64,000 nucleotides of DNA from assembly GCA_046045965.1 (NCBI GenBank), contig JBJOKS010000003.1:32001-96000 (forward strand), read 5' to 3'. Shown here one piece after another: positions 3,586-24,603 of the stretch. Source of the stretch: Cyanobacteriota bacterium. Lineage in GTDB: Bacteria; Cyanobacteriota; Cyanobacteriia; Cyanobacteriales; Nostocaceae. The position numbers and the translations under genes were made by a program. The stretch's first letter is position 1; each line of letters opens with the position of its first letter. Below the pieces are notes generated by a model. It was not told where the DNA came from. It searched no databases and saw only the letters and a program-made list of their open reading frames with translations.

Positions 3586-3624
3586 GAATCAATCTATACC
3601 CAGTGCAATGACTTTTCTGTGGCT

Positions 3625-3735
3625 ATAACAATCCTATCTGATTTGTGAATGGCGTTTTTAAAACGAACCGCTCCAGACGCAGAGAGCGCAGAGGTAGAGA
3701 AAAAGAGGTGTTCATATCTTATTTAGGATTGCTAT
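3625..3735. mobile_element. MITE-like element with terminal inverted repeats ATAACAATCCTA...TAGGATTGCTAT
   Basis: Imperfect 12-bp TIR; the left-end 23-mer AACAATCCTATCTGATTTGTGAA recurs at 3738-3760. Confidence 0.6.
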
Positions 3736-3958
3736 CTAACAATCCTATCTGATTTGTGAAAATTAAGGAATTTAGATCCCTGACTTATTGAACAAGTCGG
3801 GGATCTAGTTGTTCGTAACTATACTAATAAGGGTAAAGGGTAAGGAGGAAAGCGAAAAACGCTTACCCTTTGTTGGGAGAAAGAAAATTTTACATTTCTA
3901 AATTTGCGGCTAAATGCTATACTGTTTTTTTTAATCATCTCAGTAATAACTCATTATT

Positions 3959-5449: not shown

Positions 5450-5747
5450 TTATCTAAAACTGTATCTTTTGCTAATTTCGGTGCATTCTACTTTTTTAAT
5501 ATCTTTGAATTGTTATTAAATTCTCATATTTACTTGCCGATTAAGTGATTAAATCATGACTTATTAATTGTCATAATTGCTTGTTTTTTAATTAGTGAAT
5601 TAGTAATCAAATTAGCTTTTTATATCAGCCAAATCATAGTAATTATTAACCAAGGGGAATAACTGGCAATTTCCAGCTTTACTAGACAAAAGATTGAAAA
5701 ATTCAGGCTGGGACAAAAAAAATATTATTTTTAAGGATAAAAGTCTG

Positions 5748-7403: not shown

Positions 7404-8822
7404 CTAGTTTTTCTGAATTCCATAACACAAACGACCCACTAACCATTGTGGAGCTTGATTTTTATCTTCATTATTTTTTGTCCGTTCAGTTTTCATCCTT
7501 TCTGTAGCTATTTTCAAAGCCGTCAAAAATTCCTCTAAATTATGCGTTTTTGAACCATCTTGTTCATTGCTTCTAGTTTGCCAATCCCATTTTTTCCACC
7601 CACTAGGAACTTCTAAACTTGCTGTTAAAATATCAAACTGGAGTTTGTAAATACCAGATTCAGGAAATTTCTGAGGTTGGATGACAGCAGTAAAATTTAA
7701 CTTATTTTCTTGGGGTATAATTTGCCAATCTTTAAATTCAATTGCCTTATTTACTTCCTGACTAGCATCAATTTCTGTAAAATTTTTGGCAAATTTATCA
7801 AATTTCTCAGCTTTAACTTTTGCTTGTAAAGAATTAGCATCAACCAATAAACTATGTTCAGATGGGGCTAAATTCACACTATAATTAATAGTTAAACTAT
7901 CTTGTTGACGAGAATCTATTTGTAAGAGTTCATAGTGACCTTGACTAACTTTACTAGCAGCAACTCCATCTTTCACTAAAGATAGAGGTCTAGTAATTCC
8001 TGTGGGTGTTGTTGGTAGTGTTTCTAATTTAGATACTTGCTCAAGAATATGATCAGGATGGAAAATCATTAACTTACTCATATCACCATTAGCTAATGAT
8101 TGATTAGAGTTATATTTTTGTAATTCCCCAAAATAATACTTGACATCTTGATATGGTCCAATGAATAGAACATAAAATGGCCGCATTTTTTCTGGTTGTT
8201 TACCAGAATTATAATCAAAGGTTTGCAGTTGATTATTTTTATCTACATAAACCTTACCATTAAATTCACTTTTAACAGCCCAAACACCAACAGCATAATC
8301 TTTTTTATCAGAATTAAAATAAATATCTTGAATTTTTTTATTTAATTTAGTTACATCGCCGCTATTTTGTTCTAAATCTGTAATAATCACCGTCATTTTG
8401 GGTTGATTTTTCGCAGAAGGAATAATAGCTGCATCTATAGGACTAGATACTTGTTTAAATTTAGCATTACTGCCATCATAAAAAACAGAAGTTGCTCCAA
8501 AACTATAATATTCACTACTTGTAATCTTCTGCATGGGATTACCAATACGATAGTATTCAACTGGTAATTGCCCTGTTAACTCAAATACTTTTCTCAGTGA
8601 TTCTAAGGCTTTAGTATAGTTAGTTTCTCCATCTTTTACATAACCTAACATCGAACCACTACCATCTAGATAAATAGCCACATTTAGAGTATCTGATTTA
8701 CTAGCTGTTTGATTATTGACAGAATTAACATTGGGAATTTCACATTTTAACTCTTCTTTTTTGTTGCAAGCTGTTAGGAAAAGTGCAATTAAGACCACAA
8801 TTAGCAATTTGATCCGCATCAT
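7404..8822 (-). CDS. Lipoprotein with vWA-like (MIDAS) domain
   Basis: Lipobox LTA-C; IYLDGSGSM (DxSxS) and VIITDLEQ motifs. Confidence 0.7.
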   Translation of the reverse strand: MMRIKLLIVVLIALFLTACNKKEELKCEIPNVNSVNNQTASKSDTLNVAIYLDGSGSMLGYVKDGETNYTKALESLRKVFELTGQLPVEYYRIGNPMQKITSSEYYSFGATSVFYDGSNAKFKQVSSPIDAAIIPSAKNQPKMTVIITDLEQNSGDVTKLNKKIQDIYFNSDKKDYAVGVWAVKSEFNGKVYVDKNNQLQTFDYNSGKQPEKMRPFYVLFIGPYQDVKYYFGELQKYNSNQSLANGDMSKLMIFHPDHILEQVSKLETLPTTPTGITRPLSLVKDGVAASKVSQGHYELLQIDSRQQDSLTINYSVNLAPSEHSLLVDANSLQAKVKAEKFDKFAKNFTEIDASQEVNKAIEFKDWQIIPQENKLNFTAVIQPQKFPESGIYKLQFDILTASLEVPSGWKKWDWQTRSNEQDGSKTHNLEEFLTALKIATERMKTERTKNNEDKNQAPQWLVGRLCYGIQKN

Positions 8823-9006
8823 TTTCTACATTCTCCGCTAATACTTTTGTGTTGATATGTTTACTATTACTAATAAATGTTAAGTAATTTTACGGTATTT
8901 TGTGTTGCCATTTCCATAACAATATGAGAGTATAACAAAGAATATTCATGTTAAGTCTAAACAAGAACACAAATTTCTAGATCAATCGAAATTATCAGGA
9001 GGGCTA

Positions 9007-9480
9007 ATGAAGCCGTGGGAGATCGTCAGAATCATTATATTTACTGTCATCGGTGCTGCACTTATGTTTTTGGGGCAGCGTCTCATCTATGAAAATCAAA
9101 TCGTACCCATTCAAAAAATCTCCTTGGATAGTTGGCTTGCTGCTGACTATACCACAGCCGCACTGATTATGTTCGGAGTCTGTATGTTTTCAACGATTGT
9201 CTGGTGCGTATTAGCAGCTACCAGCAAGTTTACTGATGGCAGCAAGACAGGAAGTTGGATGTTGCTGTGGTGGTTGTTAGGACTGCTACCAATGGCTGGA
9301 ATTGGGTTTACAGTTTTTTACATTAACCGCAGCGACGAAGCTCAACTTTCATTGATGGGATTTTTTGTATTAGATACTTTATTACTGTATTGGTTGCCTA
9401 CCGCAACAAGTTCTCCTGAAGCCGTGAAATATATTCCACCAGGAGCTTTTTTGTTACGTCATCAGCTGATGGGAGATTAA
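9007..9480 (+). CDS. Uncharacterised 4-TM membrane protein
   Basis: Four hydrophobic segments; AGGAGG RBS upstream; 3-nt gap to the tubulin-like gene. Confidence 0.8.
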   Translation: MKPWEIVRIIIFTVIGAALMFLGQRLIYENQIVPIQKISLDSWLAADYTTAALIMFGVCMFSTIVWCVLAATSKFTDGSKTGSWMLLWWLLGLLPMAGIGFTVFYINRSDEAQLSLMGFFVLDTLLLYWLPTATSSPEAVKYIPPGAFLLRHQLMGD

Positions 9481-9483
9481 GAA

Positions 9484-10998
9484 ATGTCAATTTATGTTAT
9501 AGGAATTGGTGGGACTGGTGCTAAGTCCATCGAAGCTATCATTCAATTAGCAGCCATTGGACTATTTAGTGCAGAAACTCTGAATTTATTGTTTGTTGAT
9601 GCAGATGAAACTAATGGTAATCTTTCCAGATCATTAACAAGTTTAGAAATTTATCAAAAGTGTTATGGATTGGATTTAAGGGATAAACATCCCTGGATGC
9701 AAACAAAAATCGAATCATTTCCTTTATGGTCACCATTTGCTAACAATAGCATCAACAAAAATCTGGGTTCATTTTTTCAATACAACATTCTCAAACAAGA
9801 TGAACCAGCATTAGGAAATTTATTTGATGTTCTTTACACTTCCGAAGAACGTGATGCAAATTTAGATGTAGGTTTTCGGGGACGGCCTGCCATTGGTGCA
9901 GCAGTAATGAGCCAGGTAAAACTAGATGCTTTAGATAGTGATTCCTGGGGAACATTAATGAGCAAAATCCAAAAAGATACCGGAGGAGGAACACGCCCAA
10001 AAGTATTTTTATGTGGTTCAATTTTTGGAGGAACAGGAGCTTCAGGATTACCTACTATTGGCAGGCTAATTCATAATAAATTAGAAGCTTTAAAAATCCG
10101 GGATAAAGTTGATTTAGGTTGTCTATTTGTCTTACCTTATTTTGGTTTTACTCCTGAATTGGGAGAAAATTCCGAAAAAGTATATGCTCGTTCTGAACAA
10201 TTTTTATTAAATACAGAAGCAGCACTTCGTTATTATGGCAGTCAGCCTCAAGAGACTTTTGATACTGTTTATTTATTAGGAAATCAACAATTATCGCCAG
10301 TTAAAAAATTTAGTGTTGGCAAAAATACCCAACAAAATGATCCTCATTTTCTTGAATTTTATGCTGCTTTAGCTGCCCGACAATTTTTATTAAAAACACC
10401 ACCAGGACAAAAAACAGTGGTGTTAATGAATCGGGAAAATTTAAGAACTTTAACCTGGAAAGATATTCCTGATCTCAAAGAAGTAGCACCAGAATTAATT
10501 AAAGCTACTCGGTTTGCATTTGTGTGGTTATCTAATATTGCCCCGGAACTAGCAGACGCTAAAAATATTGGTGCAGATGGTTTTAGAAAGCGTGCTGGTA
10601 CTTCTTGGTTCGTCAAATTCTTTCCTGCTTCTAGAGGAATACTGGGAGGAAATACTCAGAAAAATGCCGATTTTAACGACACTAAAGAACAGGATGCCAT
10701 AGAAATAATAACCGCTTGGTGTCAAGATTATTTACGCTGGTTGTCACATATTCATCAATGTCATGGTGAAAGCATTCAATTGTTTAATGCAGATTATTTC
10801 AAAACCAGCAAACTTAATCCTGAGAACTTATCCAATTTAATTGTTGGACAAGGTGATAGTCGAGATCAAAACAAAAAATCTCAAGACACAATTCAAAGAC
10901 TTAAAGAAAGATTAAATCCTCAAGCTATTGATCCTCCAAATCAAGGGATTATAGGACTTGCTAAAGCTTTATATCATGTTTGTCGCTTAGTTGATTAG
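9484..10998 (+). CDS. Divergent tubulin/FtsZ-superfamily GTPase (Tubulin_2/FtsZ-like)
   Basis: IYVIGIGGTGAK (T1), FVDAD (T2), GFRGRPAIG (T3-like), GSIFGGTGASG (tubulin signature), LPYF; not canonical FtsZ. Confidence 0.85.
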   Translation: MSIYVIGIGGTGAKSIEAIIQLAAIGLFSAETLNLLFVDADETNGNLSRSLTSLEIYQKCYGLDLRDKHPWMQTKIESFPLWSPFANNSINKNLGSFFQYNILKQDEPALGNLFDVLYTSEERDANLDVGFRGRPAIGAAVMSQVKLDALDSDSWGTLMSKIQKDTGGGTRPKVFLCGSIFGGTGASGLPTIGRLIHNKLEALKIRDKVDLGCLFVLPYFGFTPELGENSEKVYARSEQFLLNTEAALRYYGSQPQETFDTVYLLGNQQLSPVKKFSVGKNTQQNDPHFLEFYAALAARQFLLKTPPGQKTVVLMNRENLRTLTWKDIPDLKEVAPELIKATRFAFVWLSNIAPELADAKNIGADGFRKRAGTSWFVKFFPASRGILGGNTQKNADFNDTKEQDAIEIITAWCQDYLRWLSHIHQCHGESIQLFNADYFKTSKLNPENLSNLIVGQGDSRDQNKKSQDTIQRLKERLNPQAIDPPNQGIIGLAKALYHVCRLVD

Positions 10999-11012
10999 AG
11001 AAAGAAGGAAAG

Positions 11013-14000
11013 TTGAAAATGACAAGTTTATTATTACCCAAACTCAAAGATGATTGTGATGTCAAATCTGGAAATGCTGGTAATTGGGATTCTCAAGCAC
11101 CAACTACTTTTAACCAAGTCGCTTCTAGTTTAGATTACAAAGCACCAGGAGAAGTTAAAAATATTAGTTCTGTTCCCACAATTTGGGCGCGTCCTTTGTC
11201 AATGGAAATGGCATTACATAATGATGCTTATCCAATTCGGGAACAAATGATCATTCAATGGCAGGGAATGTTAGCCGTTTTAGCATTAGCAGAAGTGCGC
11301 GGTTTTCCGATAAAAGCCCAACTTTTAGAATTGGCAGCCAAAAAAGATGCTCATGTTTTTGCCCGTTCACTTTATGAACTTTTACCAGATGATATTAATA
11401 GTATATATAAATTTACTAATGGTAAAAGTCCTTGGGAAGATTTGTATATTTTCACTTGGAATAATCAACCTGTGGGTATGACTTCTCCAAGTACCTTAGT
11501 TGTTCCTTCAGAACAAGGTATTTGGGATGGTTTACCTTGGTGGAATGCCAAAACAATGCAGTTTGAACCAATCTATAAACATCTCAATGATATTGAAAAA
11601 GCCCAACTTGCATTTTGGTTAGATTATCTGCGGAGAGAAATTAGAGGACATAGTGATGATACTAGACCAGTTGATATAATTGTTGGTTTCATCAACGATT
11701 TTATTAATAGTTTGAGAGTTACATCTACACCTAACTTTCAACTAACTGATAATCCGGCATTTTTTGAAGTACCATTAAATAGAGGAGCTTTAGCTGCACT
11801 TAATCATCCTGTTAAAGTAGAATCAAGAGAATCTAATATTCGAGTTGTTCCCAGTTTAGTTAAACCCAATGTTCCCCCATTATTAATTCTTGATCCAGAT
11901 ATTGCTACAACTTGGAATGAACCATTACAAAATATCTGGGTTTATGAAGGTAAGACTTTAGCAGCTTTGCGTTCTGAAGATGTAGAAACATGGAACAAGA
12001 GTAAAAAAGTAATTTGTCTGCCATCAAAAGATTTATTTTTACCGGATTTGAAATTTATTGATCAAGAAGGCATTTTACCTGGTGCTTTACTTCCTGATGG
12101 TTCTCAATCTTTAGTATTCAAAGGCAAAAATATTACTCCTTTGCTACCTTTAAATCCAATTTTGTTGAACTACTTCACACCAGAAGATTTAACCAAAAAA
12201 GTTAAGCTACAACTAATTAATAATGGTGCAGGAAGTTCATTAGTAAAAGCGACATTAACTTTACCTTTGTATGGAGTTAAAGGAGGCAAAGTACCACAAA
12301 ACTTCTATGTAGTCAAAGAATATGCGCTATTAGAAGAAAACATTATTTCTGAAGTTCCCGTTTTAGAAATCTGGCCGAATTTCCGGGCTGAGGGATGGAA
12401 AGAATATTACGGCTTTTACTACGATGCTGCTTTAGGAGAAGATACTTTCCAAGTTAGTTTTCCATCAGCTAAAAATACTCACATCTTTAAAGAAGGACAA
12501 GGTTCTTATCAATTAGTTAATTTAGAAGAATTTCCATCTTTTATTGACTGTAAAGATATTTACAAAAACACCATTGGTTTAATTTTGTTAGCAACTCCAG
12601 AACTAATTAATCTTCATGGTGACTGGGTAGTTGGTGTTGATTTTGGTACTTCCTTTACTAATATTTATGTCAATAAAAATGATAGAGTTGTCGAACGTTT
12701 AACATTAGAAAATTTGCACTGTAAAGTTACAGATGTTTCTATTGACACTCGTTTTTCTGCTTTGTTTGAATTCTTTATTCCTGAAAGTTTTATTCCTATA
12801 GATAAACCTTTCCCCATGTCTACGGTATTAACCAGTCGGGGTAAAACTAATGCTAAGGATGATCAAGTAAGTCCGATTTTTGATGGTCGGCTGTATATTC
12901 CTAATCTTCAACGTTTTGCACCTCAAGAAACATGGATTAAAACCAATTTAAAATGGACAACTTCTAATCTTACAGATAATCAACTATTTCTCAAACATTT
13001 AGCATTACACATTACAGCCTTAGCTGCTAAAGATGGCGCAAAAACTATTCAATGGTCATTATCATTTCCTTCTGCTTTTTCTACGACAGAGCAACAAAGA
13101 TATGCCCTAAACTGGCAAAGATTAACCAAAGAATTATCGAAAAATACAGGAATTGTACATACTAGTCCAGATAGAGACGATAGTACCTATTTTCGGACTG
13201 AAAGTTTAGCAGTTGCCCAATATTTTGCCGAACAAGAAGGATATGATTTAGTTAGCAGCACTTGTATTGATATCGGCGGTGGTACATCGGATATTTCTAT
13301 TTGGCAAGATGATAAACTGCTGCATCAATGTTCAGTTTTGTTAGCAGGTAGTCAGCTATTTTCTCAATTTGTAGAAATGAATCCTAACTTTTTGAAAAAG
13401 TTAGATCCTAACATTAAAGATATCCAGGTTTGGAGTAAGTTGAAAGATCATGCTTTTAATGCCAAACTTGATGTTTGGATGCGGTTGGAAGCTGCCAATT
13501 GGTTAGAGTCAAAACGAGATAGATTTGAAGAAGATAAAGATTTCCAAGGACTAATTCGCTTAATGGCAATTGGTGTATCTGGACTGTACTTCTATGTTGG
13601 TCAAATTCTTTCCGTTTTATATCAAGAAGGTAAATATTCCCAGAATCAAATCACACCTGTTTATGTTGGTGGAAATGCTTCACGTCTGCTGCACTGGTTA
13701 GCGGAAGGTGGTCAATTTGGACGGAATTCCGAAATAAATAGTTTATTTAGTAGCATGATGAGTATTGCTTCTGGTTTTCCTGATACAGAAGAACTCACAC
13801 GCTTGAGTCAAAACCCTAAAGATGAAGCTGCTTGTGGTTTAGTTTTAAAAGATAGAAAATTACAAGGGTTAGGTAAAAGAGAAAAAGACCATATCATTGC
13901 TGGAGAAGATTGTATCATTGGTCAAGAAAAGTTTAATTGGCAAGAAAGGTTAGAACTACAAACAAAAAATATTCGTAGAGGTGACTATCAAATTCCCACA

Positions 14001-14279
14001 CTAAATCAATTGAAATTATTTCTGAATGCTTTTCACATTAGTTTAGAACAGTTAGGAATTGATGGCATAAAACCTCTAGAATATTACGAACTGAAGGAAG
14101 ATATAGATGATCCAGAACCAGATTACAATGAAAAGTTATGGCGAGCTACAGAAAGAGAACTGAGAAATTCTTTAAATGCTATTGAAGGTAAGGTTGAAGA
14201 TATTCGTGCAGAACCTCCTTTCATTATCGGCTTAAAGGCATTACTCAAAGTTTTAGGTAAAGAATGGGCAGGAAAATAA
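11013..14279 (+). CDS. Large protein with C-terminal actin/Hsp70 (ASKHA)-fold ATPase domain and an unknown ~540-aa N-terminal region
   Basis: VVGVDFGTSFT (phosphate 1), TESLAVA (connect 1), IDIGGGTSDIS (phosphate 2), YVGGNASRL (adenosine), PKDEAACGL (connect 2); start TTG 11013 or ATG 11019. Confidence 0.8.
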   Translation: MKMTSLLLPKLKDDCDVKSGNAGNWDSQAPTTFNQVASSLDYKAPGEVKNISSVPTIWARPLSMEMALHNDAYPIREQMIIQWQGMLAVLALAEVRGFPIKAQLLELAAKKDAHVFARSLYELLPDDINSIYKFTNGKSPWEDLYIFTWNNQPVGMTSPSTLVVPSEQGIWDGLPWWNAKTMQFEPIYKHLNDIEKAQLAFWLDYLRREIRGHSDDTRPVDIIVGFINDFINSLRVTSTPNFQLTDNPAFFEVPLNRGALAALNHPVKVESRESNIRVVPSLVKPNVPPLLILDPDIATTWNEPLQNIWVYEGKTLAALRSEDVETWNKSKKVICLPSKDLFLPDLKFIDQEGILPGALLPDGSQSLVFKGKNITPLLPLNPILLNYFTPEDLTKKVKLQLINNGAGSSLVKATLTLPLYGVKGGKVPQNFYVVKEYALLEENIISEVPVLEIWPNFRAEGWKEYYGFYYDAALGEDTFQVSFPSAKNTHIFKEGQGSYQLVNLEEFPSFIDCKDIYKNTIGLILLATPELINLHGDWVVGVDFGTSFTNIYVNKNDRVVERLTLENLHCKVTDVSIDTRFSALFEFFIPESFIPIDKPFPMSTVLTSRGKTNAKDDQVSPIFDGRLYIPNLQRFAPQETWIKTNLKWTTSNLTDNQLFLKHLALHITALAAKDGAKTIQWSLSFPSAFSTTEQQRYALNWQRLTKELSKNTGIVHTSPDRDDSTYFRTESLAVAQYFAEQEGYDLVSSTCIDIGGGTSDISIWQDDKLLHQCSVLLAGSQLFSQFVEMNPNFLKKLDPNIKDIQVWSKLKDHAFNAKLDVWMRLEAANWLESKRDRFEEDKDFQGLIRLMAIGVSGLYFYVGQILSVLYQEGKYSQNQITPVYVGGNASRLLHWLAEGGQFGRNSEINSLFSSMMSIASGFPDTEELTRLSQNPKDEAACGLVLKDRKLQGLGKREKDHIIAGEDCIIGQEKFNWQERLELQTKNIRRGDYQIPTLNQLKLFLNAFHISLEQLGIDGIKPLEYYELKEDIDDPEPDYNEKLWRATERELRNSLNAIEGKVEDIRAEPPFIIGLKALLKVLGKEWAGK

Positions 14280-14322
14280 AACCAAAATAAAACATTTGTT
14301 TGATTAATTAAGACCTATAAAT

Positions 14323-14340
14323 GGGCGATTTAATTCGCCC
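14323..14340. terminator. Hairpin GGGCGA-N6-TCGCCC inside the operon
   Basis: Perfect 6-bp GC stem between the actin-like gene and the next ORF; resembles family-B end hairpins. Confidence 0.35.
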
Positions 14341-14388
14341 TCTTATCACCTTAATTCAATTCACATTTAGATAATTTGGAGGTTGGTA

Positions 14389-15246
14389 ATGGTACAGTTA
14401 AAGTGTCCAGTATGTAATCATGAATATACTGAAGGTACAGTTGAATTTTGTTCAAGATGTTGTTATTTACTTACTACCTATTCACCAAATTTATTAGGAC
14501 ATCCTGAAGTCCAGGAAAGAGAGAAAAAAAGATTACAATCAGCAAAAGAAGCCTGGAAAAAATGGTCTCACGCATATTCAGAATTAAAACAACAATTAGA
14601 AGCAGTTAAGAAAGATAGTCAACCTTTATTAAATAATTCATTAGTAGAACAGCATTTACAAAATGTGTCTAGCAATATTCAGTATTTGCCACAAATGCTG
14701 ACTCTTTTACAGCAAATAAATGAAAATATAGCTTATCAATCTCAAAATTTTTACAGGTTGTCTCAATCATATCAAGTCGCATATCAAGAAGATCAGACTT
14801 TAGTTAATGAAACAGCGTTAGAGAATGAGGTTGATGAAAGAGAGGAGTTATCAAATACCACTGAAAATATAAATATACATGATTCAGAACTCTATTATTT
14901 AATAGAAAATTATAATCAACAAGCTGATTTTCCCGATAAAATAGAAGTTTCCGAAACAGAATATAGTAAATCAAGACGTTGGGGTGGTAGTCAAGAAGCA
15001 GCAGTTTTTGAACCTAATCATAAAGGTAGAGGAGATTATTGGATTATTAATAATCAATATTTAGTTCCTAAACCTAAACAAAAAATTAATGAACATAGTT
15101 ATAAAACTGTATCAACATTATTTGAATGTTATAATTATGAACAAAATGCTACAGATAATATGACTTTAATTAAACCTGCTAAAGTTTCTAACCTTCATGG
15201 TGAAGAAAAATGGCAGTTAGAAGAAATGGGAACTTTAGAATTTTAA
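14389..15246 (+). CDS. Zn-ribbon + coiled coil + one copy of the unnamed repeated domain
   Basis: CPVC...CSRC; C-terminal GDYWII..YLVPK..KINEH..FEC..IKPAKV..WQLEEMGTLEF; GGAGG RBS before ATG 14389. Confidence 0.75.
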   Translation: MVQLKCPVCNHEYTEGTVEFCSRCCYLLTTYSPNLLGHPEVQEREKKRLQSAKEAWKKWSHAYSELKQQLEAVKKDSQPLLNNSLVEQHLQNVSSNIQYLPQMLTLLQQINENIAYQSQNFYRLSQSYQVAYQEDQTLVNETALENEVDEREELSNTTENINIHDSELYYLIENYNQQADFPDKIEVSETEYSKSRRWGGSQEAAVFEPNHKGRGDYWIINNQYLVPKPKQKINEHSYKTVSTLFECYNYEQNATDNMTLIKPAKVSNLHGEEKWQLEEMGTLEF

Positions 15247-15264
15247 TCAATCGGATAATCACTT

Positions 15265-16674
15265 ATGAAACATAAAATTTACGGTGCTACTAGCATTTTG
15301 ATATTATCTATCAGCTTACTATTTGGTTCTGAAGTGTATGCTGTAGGTAATGATAAGATGCCTGAAAATATCATTTCTCAAAATTTGAATAATCAACAGA
15401 ATATCAGTCAAAAATTCCAAGATTTGAAAAATGCAGTTAAATCTTTTAATCAGGAATTGAAAATAATTGCTCAAGAGAATAGAAGTAATGAGAAAGTTAA
15501 TTCAAAAAATATCCTGGGTAAATTAGATAATTTACAGAAAGAACTTAGTTTATTATCTAGAAATTCTCAATTTTCTTCAGCGATGAATAAAACTAAGATT
15601 AATGCTGTGATAACAGAGTTTGATGTAATTCTTAAACCTTTGGAAAATGGATTAACAAAAGAGGGGATAACTCAAGTACAAAAAGATTTGGGATTTTTTA
15701 AAACAAGAAATATATCAGAGCAATACTATGGAACTTTTGGAAAAACTACGCAGGAAGAAATAGAAACATTTACTAATAACAAAATAAAGGAACTAGAAGC
15801 AGAAATTAAATCACTTGAATCTTTATTAAATAAGCAAGAACTTCAATCAACAAATGCTATTAATTCTTCAGCTACTAGTCCTAACAACAATAAGCAAATC
15901 AATAATTATGATTCGGAAATTAGTGAAATTAATGAACTTAAAAATAGTTTAAATAAATTAAGTATAACTGTTATTATTCTTGGTTTCCTGTTAGTAGGAT
16001 TAGTCCTATTTTGTATTTATAGAATTATTAACCTTGTGGAACAACAACGTAAACTTGCAGGTTTAGTGAAAACCAATCAAAATTTTATAGATACGGAGAA
16101 TTTTCAGATCCAAATGGATGAGATTTTTAAAACATTAAATAACCTAGATACCAGATTAAAAAAGATTGAACGTAGTAACCAAAACCAAGCTCAAAATTAT
16201 TCATATACATCTAATGTTACTCCAGTGGCTGCAACTCCGCAACGCGCAGAACCAACGTTTAAACCCCAACCAGTAACTAGTCAATCATATCAACCAGCAA
16301 ATTTATCTAATACAAATATTTCATTAGTATCAGCATATAATATTAATGCTAGGTCATTATCAGAACAAGCAACAACTGTTTCAGAAAGTGAGTACACAGC
16401 AGAACAACGTCGTCTTGGCCGCAATATTCAACCCATTTTAGAATCTGATAGTCGGGGTAATTATTGGATAATTGCAGAAGGTGCTAATGAGTATCTTGTC
16501 CCTAAAGCAAAAATGAAAGTTAATGAACATAACTATTTAACTATTTCCACATTTTTTAATTGTTCTGGATATAATCCCAATTCCACTAATAATTTTACTC
16601 TTGTCAAACCAGCAAAGGTATCTTCAATAGGGGAAAAATGGGAATTAATAGAAGCTGGAGAATTACAATTTTAA
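15265..16674 (+). CDS. Single-pass membrane protein: signal peptide, peptidoglycan-binding-like segment, TM helix, coiled coil, unnamed repeated domain
   Basis: N-terminal signal; ITQVQKDLG..YYGTFGKTTQEEIETF resembles PG_binding_1; TM ITVIILGFLLVGLVLFCIY; C-terminal GNYWII..YLVPK..KPAKV..WELIEAGELQF. Confidence 0.7.
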   Translation: MKHKIYGATSILILSISLLFGSEVYAVGNDKMPENIISQNLNNQQNISQKFQDLKNAVKSFNQELKIIAQENRSNEKVNSKNILGKLDNLQKELSLLSRNSQFSSAMNKTKINAVITEFDVILKPLENGLTKEGITQVQKDLGFFKTRNISEQYYGTFGKTTQEEIETFTNNKIKELEAEIKSLESLLNKQELQSTNAINSSATSPNNNKQINNYDSEISEINELKNSLNKLSITVIILGFLLVGLVLFCIYRIINLVEQQRKLAGLVKTNQNFIDTENFQIQMDEIFKTLNNLDTRLKKIERSNQNQAQNYSYTSNVTPVAATPQRAEPTFKPQPVTSQSYQPANLSNTNISLVSAYNINARSLSEQATTVSESEYTAEQRRLGRNIQPILESDSRGNYWIIAEGANEYLVPKAKMKVNEHNYLTISTFFNCSGYNPNSTNNFTLVKPAKVSSIGEKWELIEAGELQF

Positions 16675-16717
16675 TCTAGATTAAACTAGAATTTCAATAA
16701 TCAATAATATAAATAAT

Positions 16718-17902
16718 ATGCAAATTAATATGCAAATTAAGAAAATGCAAAAGGTAGATTATTCAGAAAGGGAATGTGTGGTTATATACAATTATATTCC
16801 CCGACTGATTGAAAAATATGCAGTTTTAGTGAATATAGCTGATAATTATTATCACAATCATAATAGTGAATTGTTAATAATAGAGAATTCGCGGGGAAAA
16901 TATTGGGTGATTATGAGTGATTATGATGATCATGATATCTATTGGTTGTTTCCTGTGGCTAAACTCAATGGTAGAATTAACCCTAATGAAAATGAAGCAT
17001 TTAATTTACTGTTTGATTGTCATAATTATACAAATGTAAATTCTCTCCAATTCACACTTAAAAAACCGGCTCAAGTATATCCTAGTGGTAGTGGGGATGG
17101 ATGGATTTTAGAAAAACAGGGAATTTTAGATTTTAGTAATTCATCTTCGGTAGAAGATTCTCAAGATAATGGTAAAATTACACAAAATCAGCCTCATATA
17201 GACAATAATCCAAAAACTGAAAACTCTGATATACTACCATCGGTATTGCAATCGGAATTTAATGAATATATAGAAAATTCACAAGCAGAATTTAATCAAT
17301 TAAACTCAAAAATTCAAGCATTAATAGCAAGTCACGAACAGCTAAAAGAGGAAGTTAAGTTAGTAAAAGATAAATATAATGATTTAGCAGGTAAATTATC
17401 AGATAGAGAATCAATAAATTATCAAAATCAAAATCACAATCAAAGTCATGAAAATTCTGATCTTAATTCTCGATTAGAAATGGTACAAGAAGTTACTAAA
17501 CCAACACCTACATCTGTTAATCTTAATCTTTCCCCTCAAGAAATACAAATTGTGGGGGTTTATAATTCTAATCAGGTTGCATCTATATCACAAAAGGCAA
17601 AGCCAGTTTCGGAGGCAAATTCTAGTATTGAGAAACGTAGTCAGGGAAATAATGAAGCGGTGGTTTTAGAAATACAAACTCAAGGTTATTATTGGTTATT
17701 AACCACTAAAGATATATTATATGTAATGCCTAGAAAGCATTTAAATATAAATCGGGCAACGATAGAAAGCCTCAAAGTATTATTTGAATATCAAACTAAA
17801 GCAACAAATAAGTTTAAATTACTCAAACCTGCTAAAGTGGTAATGATAGAGAATACAAAAACTTGGCAATTGACCGAAAAAGGAATTATTGAATTTGAAT
17901 AA
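16718..17902 (+). CDS. Protein with two copies of the unnamed repeated domain joined by a coiled coil
   Basis: GKYWVI..KKPAQV..WILEKQGILDF and GYYWLL..LKPAKV..WQLTEKGIIEF. Confidence 0.75.
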   Translation: MQINMQIKKMQKVDYSERECVVIYNYIPRLIEKYAVLVNIADNYYHNHNSELLIIENSRGKYWVIMSDYDDHDIYWLFPVAKLNGRINPNENEAFNLLFDCHNYTNVNSLQFTLKKPAQVYPSGSGDGWILEKQGILDFSNSSSVEDSQDNGKITQNQPHIDNNPKTENSDILPSVLQSEFNEYIENSQAEFNQLNSKIQALIASHEQLKEEVKLVKDKYNDLAGKLSDRESINYQNQNHNQSHENSDLNSRLEMVQEVTKPTPTSVNLNLSPQEIQIVGVYNSNQVASISQKAKPVSEANSSIEKRSQGNNEAVVLEIQTQGYYWLLTTKDILYVMPRKHLNINRATIESLKVLFEYQTKATNKFKLLKPAKVVMIENTKTWQLTEKGIIEFE

Positions 17903-17904
17903 GG

Positions 17905-19422
17905 ATGGTTAAAATAATGCCTAGCTTAACCTTTGATGAAATAGTCAAGAAATTTGAAGAATTAAGACAACTGTGCTATCAACATTTTGCACCGAGAATA
18001 ACTAATATAGAAAATTACCTATCTACGTTAACTGAACGGGTTCAAAATGGCTCAGTTATAGTTACAGGTGCTTTTACAACTGAACAAATTACCCCTCTAA
18101 ATATATCTGAATCAGAATTAATAGAAGTTTATAATAACGTCCCCAAAGTTTTATTAAAAAATTCAATTATCTCCGAATTAACAGCTAAAAGTTATCGAGA
18201 AGATAACCAAAATCAACCTGTTTTTTTAGAAAAAGATGAAAATGGTAAATATTGGATCATTGTATCTAATCCAAATAATATCTTTCTCTTACCTAGCATT
18301 AATATTAAATTACATATTCATAAACTAAAAACAGTAGAAAAATCATTTGATTTTCGTGGTATTACTCCCTCATTAGATACTCATTTTCTCTTAATTAAAC
18401 CTGCTAGAGTGTCGAGTTTACCTAATGGTAAAGAATGGAAGTTATTAGAAAAGGGAATTTTAGAATTTACTAATCATGTTTCTGGTGTTTCATTTAGATC
18501 ACATTTAGATACAGATGAGCAAGAAAATCAAGTTAAAGAGAATTTAGAAAAGAATAATTTAGAAATTGAAAATATCAATAATCAACTAAATAATTTGAAA
18601 TTACAGTTAGGGCAGTTGCAAGAGGAAAACACAAATTTAAAATCGCAAATAAACATATCAGAAATTAAAGATAATCAAGCAAATACTAATGTTACAATAC
18701 TTAAAATAAATAAACAATTAAATGAGGTTAAATCTGAGTTAGACAAGTTTGATATACAACGTCAAAATCTAGAATTAAAAATCAAAAATATTCCAATAGT
18801 TAGAGATTCTGTAAATTTGCCAGATATAGATTTACTTAAAAAACAAATAGAATTATTTGGATTACTACACAATTATAATCTTAAATTAGATTTTCCCGAA
18901 AAAAGACAAGTAGCAGAAACCATAGAAAGTAAATTTAATCGTATGAATGGTTCGCAACAGATATTACCAAGATTTGAATATAAAAATCAAGGTGAATATT
19001 GGATTGTTAATAATAGGTATTTAGTACCTAAATTTAATTTTAAGATAAATACTTATGTATATGAATTTCTATCTTTATTCTTTGAGTGTCGAAATTATAA
19101 TAATTCCACTTGTGACAGTTTCATTCTCATCAACCCCGCTCACGTAGCAATGATAGATAATTCAGAAAATTGGCAGGTTACAGAAAAAGGAATTATTGAA
19201 TTTATAGATACTCAGCAAACAGCAACAAATAATAATCCAGAAGTATCAAAGATTTATGAACAATTGGAAAATTTGAAATCAATGTTAGAAAAGTTTCAAG
19301 AAGAACACAAGCATTTAGATTCGCAACTAGGAAAAATCACAGTTCTCAGAGATTATGTTTATCTGCAAATAGACTTAATAAAAGTACGCCTAGAATCTTT
19401 AGAAAACAAACAGGAAAATTGA
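17905..19422 (+). CDS. Protein with two copies of the unnamed repeated domain and coiled coils
   Basis: GKYWII..IKPARV..WKLLEKGILEF and GEYWIV..INPAHV..WQVTEKGIIEF; heptad-rich linkers. Confidence 0.75.
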   Translation: MVKIMPSLTFDEIVKKFEELRQLCYQHFAPRITNIENYLSTLTERVQNGSVIVTGAFTTEQITPLNISESELIEVYNNVPKVLLKNSIISELTAKSYREDNQNQPVFLEKDENGKYWIIVSNPNNIFLLPSINIKLHIHKLKTVEKSFDFRGITPSLDTHFLLIKPARVSSLPNGKEWKLLEKGILEFTNHVSGVSFRSHLDTDEQENQVKENLEKNNLEIENINNQLNNLKLQLGQLQEENTNLKSQINISEIKDNQANTNVTILKINKQLNEVKSELDKFDIQRQNLELKIKNIPIVRDSVNLPDIDLLKKQIELFGLLHNYNLKLDFPEKRQVAETIESKFNRMNGSQQILPRFEYKNQGEYWIVNNRYLVPKFNFKINTYVYEFLSLFFECRNYNNSTCDSFILINPAHVAMIDNSENWQVTEKGIIEFIDTQQTATNNNPEVSKIYEQLENLKSMLEKFQEEHKHLDSQLGKITVLRDYVYLQIDLIKVRLESLENKQEN

Positions 19423-19503
19423 CTATTATGAATTTGACTGACTTTCATAAAAAGGGTGAAAAATATACCCACCCTAAAAGATTTGATAGCTTATTGATAA
19501 TAA

Positions 19504-21000
19504 TTACCTCACAGAAAAAGCCTCACTAAATCTGCGTGTAATTGGCTCAACAATAAACGTCAAAATCGACTTCTTCCTAGTAACAATCTCAGCATTTGCA
19601 GCCATCCCTGGCGTAAATTCCACCTCTTGTCCGCGCACATTCATCGAATGCTTACTTAACTTAATTCGCGTCGGAAAAACTAAACCTAATTTTTCATCAA
19701 CAACCGCATTCGGACTAATTTGTAAAACTTCACCATCAACAACACCAAATTCTTGAAAAGGGAAAGTTGCTAATTTGACCTTTGCTTTCATGTTCTGACG
19801 GATAAATCCTATATCTCTGTTCAGGACTTTCACCTCTAATAACATTTCTTCACCTTCTGGTACAATTGAAAGCAATTCTTCACCAGATTGAACTGGTCCT
19901 TGAGTAGCTTTGATTTTGTAAATTGTTCCCGCTACAGGTGCTTTAATTGTTTCTCCATCTTTTTGCTGTTTAGCTTGTTCTAATTGTCCAGCAACATTAG
20001 CTAATTCTTCTTTTCGTCTATTTATCTGCGTTAAAATTTCACTTTGTCTTTCTGATGCTAAACGTAAACCTTGATTACGAGCAGCTTGATAAGCTTGTTC
20101 TGCTTGGCGAATTTCTTGGTTTTGAGCAGCAATATCTTTTTCTAAAGATGCAACTCGATCTTTTGCTTCTGTAATTCTATTTTTGGCATTAGTTACTTCA
20201 TCTGTCGCTCTAATAATATCTGTATTCGCACGATTTAATCTTTCCTGTGCTTCTAAATAATCAACTCTGGGAACTGCACCTGGATTTAATAAAGTGCGAA
20301 GATTTTCTTCTCTTTTTTGGGCAACATTTAAACTATCTTCAAGTTGAGAACGGATACTTTCGGCATTAACTAAATTAGTTTGAGCATTAATAACACTGGT
20401 TTTCGCACTGGCTAAATTTTCTTGTAAGCGAGTTAAACGAATTTTGGCTTGATTAATAATTGAAAGCTGACGTTGTGCTTCTGCTTCTGCTGCTGCTTTT
20501 TGGGCTTTATAGTCTAATAAACGAGAATTTAACAGTTCATCTTGTAATTTTGTGCCGGCGATTTTTTCACCTTTTCTTTCTGCTTCTAAACGTTGTAAAT
20601 CCTCCTCAATTAGTTTACTAGCTTTAGCCAGTCGGTTAACATCGGTTTGTTGTAAGTTGGGGTCACGTTCAATTAAAACTTGATCTTTGGTAACGCGATC
20701 GCCCTCTTTCACTTTCACTGCTAAAATAGATCCATTACCCAAAGATGTCACAGGTCTAACTTGACTAGAAGCAATTAATTCTCCTGGTGCTGTCGCTACT
20801 TCATCAATTTCAGAAAAATGCGCCCAGGAAATTGCACCAAATACAATAACGCTAATTGTTCCCGCTAATAATCTTGTATAAATTGCTGGTAATTCCTGTA
20901 CAGCTTTACCCAATTCATAAGATAATTGTTCCTCTGGTTTGGCAAATCTTTCTTTGGTTTGACGTGCTTGAACAGCATTTGCAAATAGGGAATATTTCAT
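19504..21000 (-). CDS. HlyD-family membrane fusion protein (type I secretion adaptor)
   Basis: TM helix then IDEVATAPGEL, VKEGDRV, long coiled coil, IKAPVAG, DIGFI..FPFQEFG, PGMAANAEI. Confidence 0.92.
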   Translation of the reverse strand: MKYSLFANAVQARQTKERFAKPEEQLSYELGKAVQELPAIYTRLLAGTISVIVFGAISWAHFSEIDEVATAPGELIASSQVRPVTSLGNGSILAVKVKEGDRVTKDQVLIERDPNLQQTDVNRLAKASKLIEEDLQRLEAERKGEKIAGTKLQDELLNSRLLDYKAQKAAAEAEAQRQLSIINQAKIRLTRLQENLASAKTSVINAQTNLVNAESIRSQLEDSLNVAQKREENLRTLLNPGAVPRVDYLEAQERLNRANTDIIRATDEVTNAKNRITEAKDRVASLEKDIAAQNQEIRQAEQAYQAARNQGLRLASERQSEILTQINRRKEELANVAGQLEQAKQQKDGETIKAPVAGTIYKIKATQGPVQSGEELLSIVPEGEEMLLEVKVLNRDIGFIRQNMKAKVKLATFPFQEFGVVDGEVLQISPNAVVDEKLGLVFPTRIKLSKHSMNVRGQEVEFTPGMAANAEIVTRKKSILTFIVEPITRRFSEAFSVR

Positions 21001-21735: not shown

Positions 21736-23838
21736 ATGTTGAAAATTTTTGCAGACAGAGGCGGTACATTTACAGATATTGTTGCTGTCACCAATAATCA
21801 AACAATTATAGACAGACTCTCAAATTTTACAGCACGTTTTTTAATTGTCCCACTGCCTAACCAGGAATGGGTAATAGTCTATAAATTACTGTCAGAAAAT
21901 CCTGAACTATATCAGGATGCAGTTATCCAGGGAATTCGGGATATTATGGGAATTGCTGCTAATGAACCTATCCCCTATCAAAATATAGAAGTAGTGAAAA
22001 TGGGAACAACAGTAGCTACAAATGCACTGTTAGAAAGACATGGCGATAGTGTAGTTTTGCTGATTACTAAAGGTTTTAAAGATGCCTTAAGAATAGGCTA
22101 TCAAAACCGCCCCAATATCTTCGCACGTCAAATTATTTTACCTACCATGCTTTATGAACAAGTAATAGAAGTAGAGGAAAGATATGATGCTCAAGGCAAG
22201 GAATTAATACCTGTAAATATTGCAGAGGTAAGACAAGATTTACAAACAGTTTACAACACAGGAATTAGAAGTTGTGCCATTGTATTTATGCACAGCGATC
22301 GCTATCCCCAACATGAACAACAAGTAGCCCGAATTGCCGAAGAAATCGGATTTACACAAATTTCTGTATCCCATCAAGTAAGTCCATTAATGAAACTCGT
22401 AAGTAGAGGAGATACCACTGTTGTTGATGCCTATTTAACTCCTATTCTTCGTCGCTATGTTAACCAAGTAGCTAGTCATTTATTCAACGTTAGATTAATG
22501 TTTATGAAATCCGATGGAGGGTTAACTGACGCAGAAAAATTTCAAGGTAAAGATAGCATTTTAAGTGGTCCTGCTGGTGGTATTGTCGGTGCTGTTCAAA
22601 CTAGCAAAAGAGCAGGTTTTGATTTAGTTATTACCTTTGATATGGGAGGAACAAGTACAGATGTTGCTCACTTTAAAGGAGAATATGAAAGACAATTAGA
22701 TTCAGAAATTGCCGGTGCGCGGATGCGAGTTCCTGTATTAGCAATTAATACAATTGCTGCGGGTGGTGGTTCAATTTTATATTTTGATGGTTCTAGTTAT
22801 CGTGTTGGTCCAGAGTCTGCTGGATCAAATCCTGGACCCGCTTCCTATCGACGTGGAGGACCATTAACTGTGACAGATGCTAACGTCATGTTAGGCAAAA
22901 TTCAACCTCAATATTTTCCCGCAGTTTTTGGTAATGAAGGTAAATTACCGCTAGATAAAGAAATCGTAATTCACAAGTTTACACAATTAGCTGAAGATAT
23001 TGCATCTGTCACCGGAAATTATCAAAATCCTGAAAAAGTAGCATCAGGTTTTATTGCTATTGCTGTGGAAAATATGGCAAATGCTATCAAAAAAATCAGC
23101 CTTCAAAGAGGTTATGATGTTAGCAACTATGTACTTTGTTGTTTTGGTGGTGCAGGTGGACAAGTTGCTTGTTTAATTGCTGATACTTTAGGAATGAAAA
23201 AGATATTTCTTCACCCTTTTGCTGGTGTGCTTTCTGCTTATGGAATGGGTTTGGCTGATGTGAGAGCTACCAGGGTTACAGGAGTAGAACAACATTTAAA
23301 TCAAACACTCATTCCTCAATTACAGCAGTTAATGGCAGCTTTAGAAAACCAAGCACGGAGGGAGTTAAACCAAACAGAAAACACGAAATTGGAAGAAGAA
23401 TTAGTTAAAAAAGTGAATTTAAAATATGAGGGTACTAATTCAATTTTAATAATTGATTTTAACTCAGATGTGGCATTAATGCAACAGAATTTTGAAAAAG
23501 AGCATAAATCAAGATACGGTTTTATTCAAACCGAAAAATTCTTAATTATTGAATCTATTTCTGTAGAAGTAATCCAAAAAATGGATACTCCTGAAGAACC
23601 CGTAATCATTCGTCAACTCCCAATAGAGGAAACACCCCAACCTATAGAAATAGTCCAGATGTTTACTGCTAAAAAATGGCATGAAACTCCAGTTTATCGT
23701 CGAGAAGATTTACAACCAGGAGATACTATAAATGGTGCTGCAATTATTGTCGAAAAAATCAGCACAATTGTAGTTGAACCTAATTGGCAAGCAAAATTAA
23801 CAGAACGAAATCATTTAATCTTAGAACGTTTGGTTTAA
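21736..23838 (+). CDS. Hydantoinase A / 5-oxoprolinase N-terminal subunit
   Basis: DRGGTFTD, MGTTVATNALLER, SGPAGG, DMGGTSTDV, IAAGGGS, FGGAGGQ. Confidence 0.93.
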   Translation: MLKIFADRGGTFTDIVAVTNNQTIIDRLSNFTARFLIVPLPNQEWVIVYKLLSENPELYQDAVIQGIRDIMGIAANEPIPYQNIEVVKMGTTVATNALLERHGDSVVLLITKGFKDALRIGYQNRPNIFARQIILPTMLYEQVIEVEERYDAQGKELIPVNIAEVRQDLQTVYNTGIRSCAIVFMHSDRYPQHEQQVARIAEEIGFTQISVSHQVSPLMKLVSRGDTTVVDAYLTPILRRYVNQVASHLFNVRLMFMKSDGGLTDAEKFQGKDSILSGPAGGIVGAVQTSKRAGFDLVITFDMGGTSTDVAHFKGEYERQLDSEIAGARMRVPVLAINTIAAGGGSILYFDGSSYRVGPESAGSNPGPASYRRGGPLTVTDANVMLGKIQPQYFPAVFGNEGKLPLDKEIVIHKFTQLAEDIASVTGNYQNPEKVASGFIAIAVENMANAIKKISLQRGYDVSNYVLCCFGGAGGQVACLIADTLGMKKIFLHPFAGVLSAYGMGLADVRATRVTGVEQHLNQTLIPQLQQLMAALENQARRELNQTENTKLEEELVKKVNLKYEGTNSILIIDFNSDVALMQQNFEKEHKSRYGFIQTEKFLIIESISVEVIQKMDTPEEPVIIRQLPIEETPQPIEIVQMFTAKKWHETPVYRREDLQPGDTINGAAIIVEKISTIVVEPNWQAKLTERNHLILERLV

Positions 23839-23898: not shown

Positions 23899-24603
23899 AT
23901 GATGATTACTCAAGAATTAGTATCTCCAGAAAACTTCTTTCCAGAAGATTTAACTTTTCCTCCCAGTGACTTATATAGTGATGAACCTCCCGTGGAAACA
24001 GAACTGCATCTAGAGCAAATTATGCTCTTAATCAAATGTCTGAAATGGTTATGGAAAGAAAAAAATGATTTCTATGCAGCAGGAAATCTGAGTATTTACT
24101 ATAGTCCTCACCAAAAGAAAACCGAAAATTTTCGAGGGCCTGATTTTTTTGTAGTTTTAGGAACAGAGAGAAAGACTCGTAAAAGTTGGGTAGTGTGGGA
24201 AGAAAATGGTAAATATCCTCATGTAATTGTGGAAATTCTCTCACCTACTACCGCAAGAACTGATAGAGAAGCTAAAAAAGAACTGTATCAAGAAACTTTC
24301 CGTACACCGGAATATTTTTGGTTTGATCCTTATACCTTAGAATTTGCAGGGTTTCATTTAGTAGATGGTAAATATCAACCCATAGAACCTAACGAAAAAG
24401 GACATTTATGGAGTGAACAACTAGGTTTGTATTTGGGAATTCATGAGGGTTTATTACGTTATTTTACACCAGAAGGAAATTTAGTACCCACACCTGAAGA
24501 AACCGCAGAATTAGAAGTTAAAAGAGCAGAACGTGAAACTCAACGAGCAGAACGTTTAGCAGCAAAATTGCGGGAATTAAATATTAACCCAGATACGATT
24601 TAA
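23899..24603 (+). CDS. Uma2-family (PD-(D/E)xK) endonuclease-like protein
   Basis: SDEPPVETELHLEQ, FRGPDFFVV, IVEILSPTT, EYFWFDP, AERLAAKLRELNINP. Confidence 0.9.
   Translation: MMITQELVSPENFFPEDLTFPPSDLYSDEPPVETELHLEQIMLLIKCLKWLWKEKNDFYAAGNLSIYYSPHQKKTENFRGPDFFVVLGTERKTRKSWVVWEENGKYPHVIVEILSPTTARTDREAKKELYQETFRTPEYFWFDPYTLEFAGFHLVDGKYQPIEPNEKGHLWSEQLGLYLGIHEGLLRYFTPEGNLVPTPEETAELEVKRAERETQRAERLAAKLRELNINPDTI

Follow-up and report, generated by a model that had tools for sequence, protein, structure and literature searches.

We analyzed a 64,000-nucleotide stretch of a Nostocaceae genome (contig JBJOKS010000003.1, positions 32,001 to 96,000; hereafter the window, to which all coordinates refer) in which four consecutive genes carry six copies of a repeated domain of ~123 amino acids (aa), here called DOM. 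These genes follow a core that includes a 504-aa tubulin-like protein (TUB) and a 1088-aa actin-like protein (ACT). We found that DOM represents a genuine domain family that had no name, that its confident structural model has no detectable structural relative, and that it is linked more tightly to the ACT gene than to the TUB gene. We tentatively propose, with confidence somewhat short of even, that DOM is a non-enzymatic protein–protein docking module private to a system formed by a lipoprotein, a membrane protein, TUB and ACT, and that it tethers accessory proteins to an ACT-centred complex. To our knowledge, there is essentially no work on bacterial operons in which a GTPase of the tubulin superfamily is paired with an ATPase of the actin fold, and we know of no account of how such nucleoside triphosphatases (NTPases) are connected to membranes or to partner proteins. 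A full-text literature search found no paper on the cluster or on DOM; the source-data tables of PMC7159879, and possible cyanobacterial neighbourhoods in them, lay outside that search.

An unnamed domain in six copies

The four genes lie on the + strand within positions 14383–19422 (287, 469, 394 and 505 aa) and are separated by gaps of 18, 43 and 2 base pairs (bp). An earlier reading of the window by a model (hereafter the sequence-only reading) had reported six domain copies in a 1+1+2+2 arrangement across these genes, together with a consensus for them. Both were reproduced: an all-against-all blastp of the four proteins gave the same count per gene and recovered every pair of copies (E-values of 1.1e-9 to 5.8e-31 in the four-protein database), while a profile built from the six copies hit the same six places and no others in the 5.29-Mb assembly (E 8.8e-51 to 9.4e-42). 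A MAFFT alignment of the six copies contained 14 invariant columns (N, E, G, Y, W, P, F, L, P, A, V, W, G and F) and yielded the consensus YN..VSE..G.YWII..YLVPK..IN..FEC..F.L.KPAKV..W.L.E.G.LEF. Each copy is thus supported by blastp, alignment and profile, as well as by its placement in the tree described below, in which two subtypes, N-type and C-type, are distinguished.

The four proteins combine DOM with different modules, and we refer to these architectures as carrier types T1 to T4. Gene 1 (14389..15246, + strand; T1) encodes an N-terminal zinc ribbon, a linker and one C-terminal DOM (copy 1, C-type, 14875..15243); its start at 14389 is an ATG two codons inside an open reading frame (ORF) that begins with TTG at 14383. 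Gene 2 (15265..16674, +; T2) encodes a hydrophobic N-terminus, a helical region of ~200 aa, a membrane segment, a low-complexity linker and a C-terminal DOM (copy 2, C-type, 16312..16671). In gene 3 (16718..17902, +; T3), a coiled-coil-like linker joins an N-type DOM (copy 3, 16760..17140) to a C-type DOM (copy 4, 17531..17899), and in gene 4 (17905..19422, +; T4) a leader of ~60 aa precedes an N-type DOM (copy 5, 18091..18474), a second coiled-coil-like linker, an internal C-type DOM (copy 6, 18838..19212) and a 70-aa helical tail. All six copies lie on the + strand. The modules that the sequence-only reading had assigned to these carriers were confirmed: a CxxC...CxxC motif at residues 8–26 of gene 1, whose orthologues match the Pfam zinc-ribbon families PF13240 and PF13248; a strong membrane segment at residues 233–251 of gene 2, the N-terminus of which also appears hydrophobic by eye; and weak ZapB, Syntaxin and SMC matches in the linkers of genes 3 and 4 (E 1.7e-4 for the gene 3 linker against ZapB). 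The DOM genes are also AT-rich (G+C 0.29–0.30, versus 0.34–0.36 in the core genes and flanks; window 14001–20000), probably because of their N/K/I/Q-rich low-complexity linkers.

In line with its earlier description as unnamed, DOM did not match any characterized Pfam family. Searches of the whole window proteins against Pfam at E ≤ 0.01 returned no match in the DOM regions, and searches with the six isolated copies at E ≤ 10 returned nothing beyond two marginal hits to unrelated families (E 0.094 and 0.15). No DOM match was found in NCBIfam, PADLOC or PHROGs, the latter two giving only weak coiled-coil-type hits. The family is nevertheless sizeable: among 1.84 billion representatives, the six-copy profile matched 1,032 cluster representatives at a threshold of E ≤ 1e-3; tightening it to 1e-10 leaves 687, and to 1e-30, 96. 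Where homologues bear a name, it is “hypothetical protein” or “zinc ribbon domain-containing protein”, and their named sources are all cyanobacteria, both filamentous and unicellular.

For structure prediction, we aligned 87 DOM copies from the window and 18 related loci. The resulting AlphaFold2 model is a compact alpha/beta fold with three helices and nine short strands (pLDDT 90.8, pTM 0.84). Foldseek did not identify any structural neighbour of this model in the PDB (best E 0.37) or in BFVD (best E 0.35), and the DOM sequence profile had no significant PDB match (best E 0.42). Matches in the ESM Atlas consisted of unnamed cyanobacterial clusters and one Acidobacteriota cluster. The latter is composed of 622-aa proteins found most often in Acidobacteriota, with DUF7577 in 23% of members, and superimposes on DOM over 102 residues with a TM-score of 0.66; it may possibly represent a non-cyanobacterial relative. 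Across the 87 copies, the positions that hardly vary (Y, G, L, P, F, A, W, G and F) hold hydrophobic or structural residues, and no conserved catalytic-type polar residue was found. The isoelectric point varies widely, with medians of 5.9 for N-type and 6.8 for C-type copies and a range of 4.5–9.8. With neither a catalytic constellation nor a consistent charge, DOM looks more like a binding module than like an enzyme or a protein that binds nucleic acids.

The two subtypes were delineated on a maximum-likelihood tree of 88 copies, in which 27 of the 29 N-terminal copies fall outside the group holding the C-type copies. The N-terminal clades extend to other families within the order, and the split between the two types is an old one. 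Their profiles are clearly homologous (hhalign E 4e-41) and 26% identical, and a motif common to C-type copies, EVSET..S...RR.G, is absent from N-type copies. Within some genomes, copies are far more alike than this: in loci L021, L027, L031 and L033, C-type copies that sit in otherwise unlike genes share 70–89% identity, which suggests ongoing duplication or gene conversion within types, and not one of the 14 closest pairs within a genome combines an N-type with a C-type copy. The six copies of the window, with pairwise identities of 26–47%, are indeed strongly diverged and give no sign of a recent expansion, as the sequence-only reading had stated; that description does not extend to the family, given that in other genomes copies in different genes reach 89% identity and point to recent duplication or conversion.

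Linkage of DOM to the core genes

DOM and the core genes are found together in most genomes that have either. Among 61 related genomes, DOM was detected in 16, TUB in 15 and both in 14. The exceptions were DOM alone in G007 and G035 (in the latter as a 24-residue fragment) and TUB alone in G044 (on a 4.7-kb contig). Among 201 genomes spread evenly over the cyanobacterial phylum, DOM and ACT were each detected in 24 and together in 21, and for 19 of these 21 both were on one contig within 10 kb. ACT without DOM corresponded to a broken gene (G112), a weak partial match (G080) and a fragment in an 87%-complete assembly (G144); DOM without ACT corresponded to fragments in G035 and G186, and to G220. 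All of these are plain counts rather than statistics, and the related genomes are not independent. The hits to the domain were thus not scattered away from tubulin- and actin-like genes, and the connection to the tubulin/actin core postulated by the sequence-only reading was borne out, although the two partners are not equivalent: ACT is the closer one.

Gene maps of 27 loci revealed a common plan, in which a divergent lipoprotein gene is followed by genes for a membrane protein, TUB and ACT and then by 2–7 DOM genes with 1–4 DOMs each. Several departures from this plan place DOM closest to ACT. Secondary clusters at L019, L022, L032 and L035 contain an ACT paralogue, or fragments of one, with DOM genes and without TUB, and in G059, TUB is on another contig, apart from ACT and two DOM genes. 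In addition, ACT paralogues lacking the first 273–331 residues occur in association with DOM. At L033 (G050:C200), a leader and an N-type DOM replace the N-terminal 273 residues of ACT, i.e., the paralogue is a DOM-ACT(274–1088) fusion, while at L019 (G002:C50) and L055 (G165:C12) a truncated ACT paralogue of ~730 aa stands beside a leader-DOM gene of type T4. The T4 orthologue of gene 4 in a same-genus genome adjoins an N-terminally truncated ACT paralogue; the window itself has the T4 gene and no ACT paralogue. At one locus, L054 (G224:C1), an extra double-DOM gene (16804–17886) was found across the cluster, right after the divergent lipoprotein gene, so that DOM genes are not always downstream of ACT.

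The core proteins themselves do not contain DOM. A hidden copy in ACT or TUB was considered and ruled out by hhalign, in which the DOM profile reached probabilities of 0.35% against the ACT N-terminus, 0.27% against TUB and 0.12% against full ACT. Consistently, an hmmsearch over all ORFs of the 27 loci placed DOM exclusively in the accessory genes, the L033 fusion being the sole exception.

Within the core, ACT (11013..14279, + strand) is a giant protein of the actin/Hsp70 fold. An N-terminal stretch of ~55 residues is followed by an N domain and a beta-rich middle, and the ATPase fold lies at the C-terminal end. Its AlphaFold2 model (pLDDT 88.3, pTM 0.77) retrieved MreB, the DnaK nucleotide-binding domain, BeeR and MamK through Foldseek at E-values of 1e-7 to 1e-5, and the same search gave 363 PDB matches at E ≤ 0.001, with MreB and the DnaK nucleotide-binding domain on top. 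The phosphate-1, phosphate-2 and adenosine motifs are present (VGVDFGTS, IDIGGGTSD and VYVGGNAS), and the C-terminal half has the two-lobed ATPase fold of the actin/Hsp70 (ASKHA) superfamily. Residues 1–55 (window 11013–11180) are strongly conserved over 87 homologues, with W25, F33, L40 and P55 among the invariant positions, yet were modeled at a pLDDT of only 34–55. This combination is typical of a docking peptide that folds on its partner, and makes this segment a candidate docking site for DOM or TUB. The window’s genome has one full-length ACT gene and no other.

TUB (9484..10998, + strand) resembles tubulin/FtsZ-superfamily GTPases and carries GGTGAK and GGTGASG motifs. It scored just below the Pfam cut-off for Tubulin_2 (26.3 bits, cut-off 27), and 14 of 15 orthologues, which are 488–530 aa long, matched this family at E ≤ 0.01 (best 1.4e-10); no PDB sequence match was found for TUB. 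The first operon gene (9007..9480, +) encodes a small multi-pass membrane protein of 157 aa, TM157, recognized by its hydrophobic sequence; it has no family match in Pfam or NCBIfam, and its orthologue is directly upstream of TUB in primary loci. The divergently transcribed gene (7404..8822, − strand) encodes a predicted lipoprotein of 472 aa with an N-terminal LTAC lipobox noted by eye, and 11 of the 12 loci examined for it encode a homologue. A DGSGS sequence followed by a later TD motif recalls a MIDAS site, and in 14 orthologues D53, S57 and T148 are invariant and D149 is near-invariant. A search of the 14 orthologues gave no Pfam VWA match at E ≤ 1, and no PDB match was found at E ≤ 10; a vWA identity is therefore left as a motif-level suggestion.

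The genes for TM157, TUB and ACT are separated by 3 and 14 bp, and gaps across all + strand genes of the cluster range from 2 to 103 bp, which fits a single operon. Two metatranscriptome libraries, each from a different study, contain contigs with ≥99% identity to the cluster, and in both libraries these bridge the junction between genes 1 and 2; with DNA carry-over possible, they offer a weak hint of transcription. A scan of positions 8700–19700 did not yield promoter- or terminator-like signals above shuffled sequences (44 vs. 51.1 and 4 vs. 4.9, respectively).

Carrier proteins and genomic neighbourhood

The carrier types recur after ACT in the order T1 (a zinc ribbon joined to DOM by a linker), T2 (a hydrophobic N-terminus, a helical region and a membrane segment, then a linker and DOM), T3 (two DOMs joined by a linker) and T4 (~60-aa leader, DOM and linker, then a DOM or a tail), and three types appear in the same order in most primary clusters. 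The sequence-only reading had seen “variable sensors” in these carriers; instead, they are in part a fixed trio of a zinc-ribbon, a membrane-spanning and a double-DOM protein. Architectures were counted for 150 of the 1,032 representatives: among the matches listed, 63 proteins have one DOM, 80 have two, six have three and one has four. The last DOM ends within six residues of the C-terminus in 129 of these 150 proteins, and a DOM starts within 25 residues of the N-terminus in 52.

Fused domains were limited in kind. In 111 longer homologues, the Pfam families found with DOM were zinc ribbons, one WD40 and coiled-coil-type hits, and among 110 representatives, four have WD40 propellers after two DOMs and the other 106 showed weak coiled-coil-type matches or nothing. 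An enzymatic effector fused to DOM was not found in either set. One DOM protein at L027 has four membrane segments.

Accessory proteins diverge faster than the core. Between the window’s genome and two relatives, core proteins are 72–78% identical and DOM proteins 28–47%, and for the same genus pair the housekeeping comparators GrpE and hydantoinase are 92% and 87% identical. The distribution of DOM is patchy (one of three other same-genus genomes, 10 of 36 same-family genomes), and the flanking genes of the window cluster are common to none of the 12 loci compared.

Other genes in the window include a subtilase (Peptidase_S8, E 3e-66) at 5694–7235, convergent to the lipoprotein gene and not kept beside the cluster in 12 other loci, and two adjacent pentapeptide-repeat genes at 2896–5449 (229 and 496 aa), the larger with an N-terminal membrane-like region. 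On the other side of the cluster, a putative restriction endonuclease of the Uma2 family (E 1.7e-24; 23899–24603) stands between the genes for hydantoinase A (21736–23838) and hydantoinase B (24688–26229).

A proposed docking role and its alternatives

Taken together, these observations suggest a docking role, because DOM is a compact, non-enzymatic and terminal module, is linked to ACT within operons and by fusion, is mounted on scaffolding-type carriers, is often multivalent, and has one subtype that is homogenized within some genomes. In particular, C-type copies that are 70–89% alike within a genome are expected if all of them fit one common partner. From the domain family, its model, its linkage and its architectures, we thus infer that DOM binds protein, and that this binding may build a multivalent, membrane-anchored assembly. 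In such an assembly, DOM would tether its carriers to a complex built on the actin-like ATPase, with an accessory trio made of a zinc-ribbon adaptor, a membrane-spanning protein and a DOM-coiled-coil-DOM protein. Lineage-specific extras, such as WD40 propellers or hubs and a second actin-like paralogue, could be plugged in by the same means, and proteins with two to four DOMs, or coiled-coil dimers, would provide multivalent cross-links. The membrane-spanning carrier would anchor the assembly to the envelope with its DOM on the cytoplasmic side, an orientation suggested by the two hydrophobic segments of gene 2-type proteins and the positive residues after the second. The first candidates for a receptor are the conserved, low-confidence N-terminus and the N-domain of ACT, because paralogues that lose these regions gain or adjoin a DOM. 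A predicted complex of ACT(274–1088) with a C-type DOM scored an ipSAE of 0.00 and 0.00, which tells neither for nor against binding.

Several observations weigh against this docking role. The absence of DOM from the core proteins makes a simple homotypic coupling to the core unlikely. Some DOM proteins may also work without the core: G007 (L022, G007:C11) has four apparently intact DOM genes, T1 to T4, beside a 315-aa C-terminal ACT fragment, with no TUB found using the window’s protein, in G220 a DOM protein was detected but ACT was not, and in genus g75 one DOM protein is encoded far from the ACT locus. L022 may be either a decaying cluster or a case of DOM proteins persisting without a core. 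Finally, N-type and C-type DOMs have remained distinct over long times, which fits a pairing of DOM with DOM at least as well as a shared receptor.

This last point leads to the main rival of the docking role, an arrangement we consider unlikely, in which N-type DOM binds C-type DOM and proteins with both polymerize head to tail into a lattice. Zinc-ribbon and membrane proteins with only C-type copies would then cap or anchor the chains, and ACT and TUB would act as NTP-driven assembly or remodelling factors rather than as receptors. The tree speaks for such a lattice, as do the homology of the two types at 26% identity, the confinement of gene conversion within each type, and the existence of proteins with up to four DOMs. 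The N-type DOM in place of ACT residues 1–273 in the fusion paralogue would likewise allow that paralogue to join a DOM network. However, G059 and G147 encode ACT with two C-type-only proteins and no N-type copy was found there, so the C-type would need another partner in these genomes, and at every locus listed there are more C-type than N-type copies. Alternatively, DOM may bind a small ligand (a nucleotide signal or a lipid head group) or nucleic acid, with the copies serving as sensors rather than connectors. A fold without known relative could harbour a ligand pocket, and the C-type motif is polar; yet the lack of a consistent charge, the hydrophobic or structural nature of the near-invariant residues, and the linkage and fusion to ACT, which point to protein partners, make a sensor very improbable.

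The sequence-only reading had likened DOM to the effector-associated domains (EAD1–10) of NTP-dependent conflict systems (Kaur, Burroughs, Iyer and Aravind 2020, PMC7159879). As set out in section 30 of that paper, one EAD copy sits on a core component and others on effector or signalling proteins, with homotypic pairing. DOM resembles the EADs described there in being small, non-enzymatic and located at N- or C-termini, in occurring as several copies in adjacent genes of an NTPase-based operon, and in that within-genome copies can be closer than orthologues; three EADs are also mixed alpha+beta. The EAD trait of adjacent-gene copies being closest is seen in L021, L027, L031 and L033, but not in the window. 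EAD partners are, however, usually enzymatic effectors or signalling enzymes, whereas those of DOM are a zinc ribbon, a membrane segment, a coiled coil or WD40, and no Pfam model matches DOM (which EADs Pfam holds was left unchecked). The idea of a shared docking or adaptor domain therefore survives as an unnamed, non-enzymatic, terminal module on varied carriers linked to a core, while the EAD pattern proper does not, since the core copy is absent (the L033 paralogue fusion apart) and enzymatic partners are lacking among the 111 + 110 proteins. An anti-invader system, in which an EAD-like DOM would recruit WD40, membrane-sensor or zinc-ribbon proteins, as sensors or effectors, to an NTPase core that polymerizes upon a trigger, would account for the patchy distribution, the unshared flanks, and the constant core with fast-diverging accessories, the core itself being less conserved than GrpE and hydantoinase. 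It would also fit the traits DOM shares with EADs, the lineage-specific similarity of copies in some genomes, and the description in PMC7159879 of GTPase systems with tubulin and HSP70 components and of non-enzymatic, superstructure-forming effectors. Moreover, a metagenomic ACT homologue of 1364 aa (P0290), aligned over 97% of the query, has at its N-terminus a Trypsin_2 (residues 23–185) and a VMAP-M1 (PF19963, residues 224–317) domain, both of which belong to the vWA-MoxR conflict systems of that paper; this fusion is a single protein on one 11.5-kb contig. With no PADLOC model matching DOM, TUB or ACT, no DO-GTPase or GAP1 gene seen in the cluster, three carrier types kept in order rather than variable, and a window neighbourhood that is metabolic instead of a defence island, we regard a conflict system as an improbable explanation.

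The nearest published theme is that of the FtsZl1 (Pfam Tubulin_2)-vWA operons (Makarova and Koonin 2010, PMC2875224). FtsZl1 proteins are 763–1208 aa long in the listed part of the family and have a C-terminal coiled-coil region and a co-directional COG2304 vWA gene; their cyanobacterial partners are a B7 membrane protein and OmpA/MotB. Both systems combine a divergent protein resembling the tubulin superfamily, which in TUB gives a borderline Tubulin_2 match, with membrane-associated partners and lineage-specific, uncharacterized low-complexity proteins, both are found in cyanobacteria alongside a normal FtsZ, and the vWA gene there has a candidate counterpart in the vWA-like lipoprotein next door here. 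However, TUB and its orthologues are shorter than the listed FtsZl1 proteins, the lipoprotein is divergent, with a vWA domain unsupported by Pfam and PDB, the 1088-aa actin-fold protein is obligatory here while no actin-fold protein is described there as a regular component, and the DOM array is not among families A1–A2 and B1–B9 as described. The DO-GTPase/GAP1-N2 systems of PMC7159879, read there as regulated assembly of cytoskeleton-like complexes, also bring proteins of the tubulin superfamily or the HSP70 fold together with components of the vWA, zinc-ribbon and membrane kinds. In that account, tubulin and HSP70 are separate themes from Firmicutes and Actinobacteria, whereas here both NTPases belong to one cyanobacterial operon. 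No P-loop GTPase or GAP1 family matched the cluster’s eight proteins in Pfam, whose GAP1 coverage was unchecked, and the loci contain no further conserved gene.

Analogies of principle extend further. Repeated, terminal plug-like modules and bivalent linkers are familiar from two other settings. In cellulosomes, dockerins are small terminal modules found on many carriers, alike within a species, that plug these carriers into a scaffold through cohesins; DOM has no sequence or fold relation to them, and the dockerin–cohesin pair is extracellular and calcium-dependent, with a known receptor. ZapA/ZapB and alpha-actinin/spectrin are bivalent filament cross-linkers in which a coiled-coil rod separates two binding domains, the same architecture as that of the double-DOM proteins. 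Their binding domain is not homologous to DOM, and filament formation by ACT or TUB would be a further assumption. In a bolder version of the docking role, which we hold to be quite unlikely, DOM would be a connector of novel fold, linking two polymers, one actin-like and one tubulin-like, with the envelope in a single machine, i.e., a bacterial dual cytoskeleton. The modular linkers would then comprise a membrane anchor, a zinc-ribbon adaptor, a bivalent cross-linker built on a coiled coil, and hubs of the WD40 type. The N-type and C-type would form two complementary plugs, and the closest analogy would be with the eukaryotic actin–microtubule cross-linkers. These readings overlap, and docking by DOM is compatible with either biological purpose, cytoskeletal or defensive.

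As a terminal adaptor module, DOM would be a variant of a known principle. Its broader interest is that it marks the accessory proteins of an uncharacterized tubulin-like/actin-like system of cyanobacteria, for which it can be used as a bait, a search profile or a deletion target. If DOM is indeed the plug by which this system assembles, it would become possible to test whether the cluster serves as a cytoskeleton, remodels membranes or acts as a polymerization-based defence, and, with it, to address the long-standing question of what the Tubulin_2-like proteins, first reported in 2010, do.

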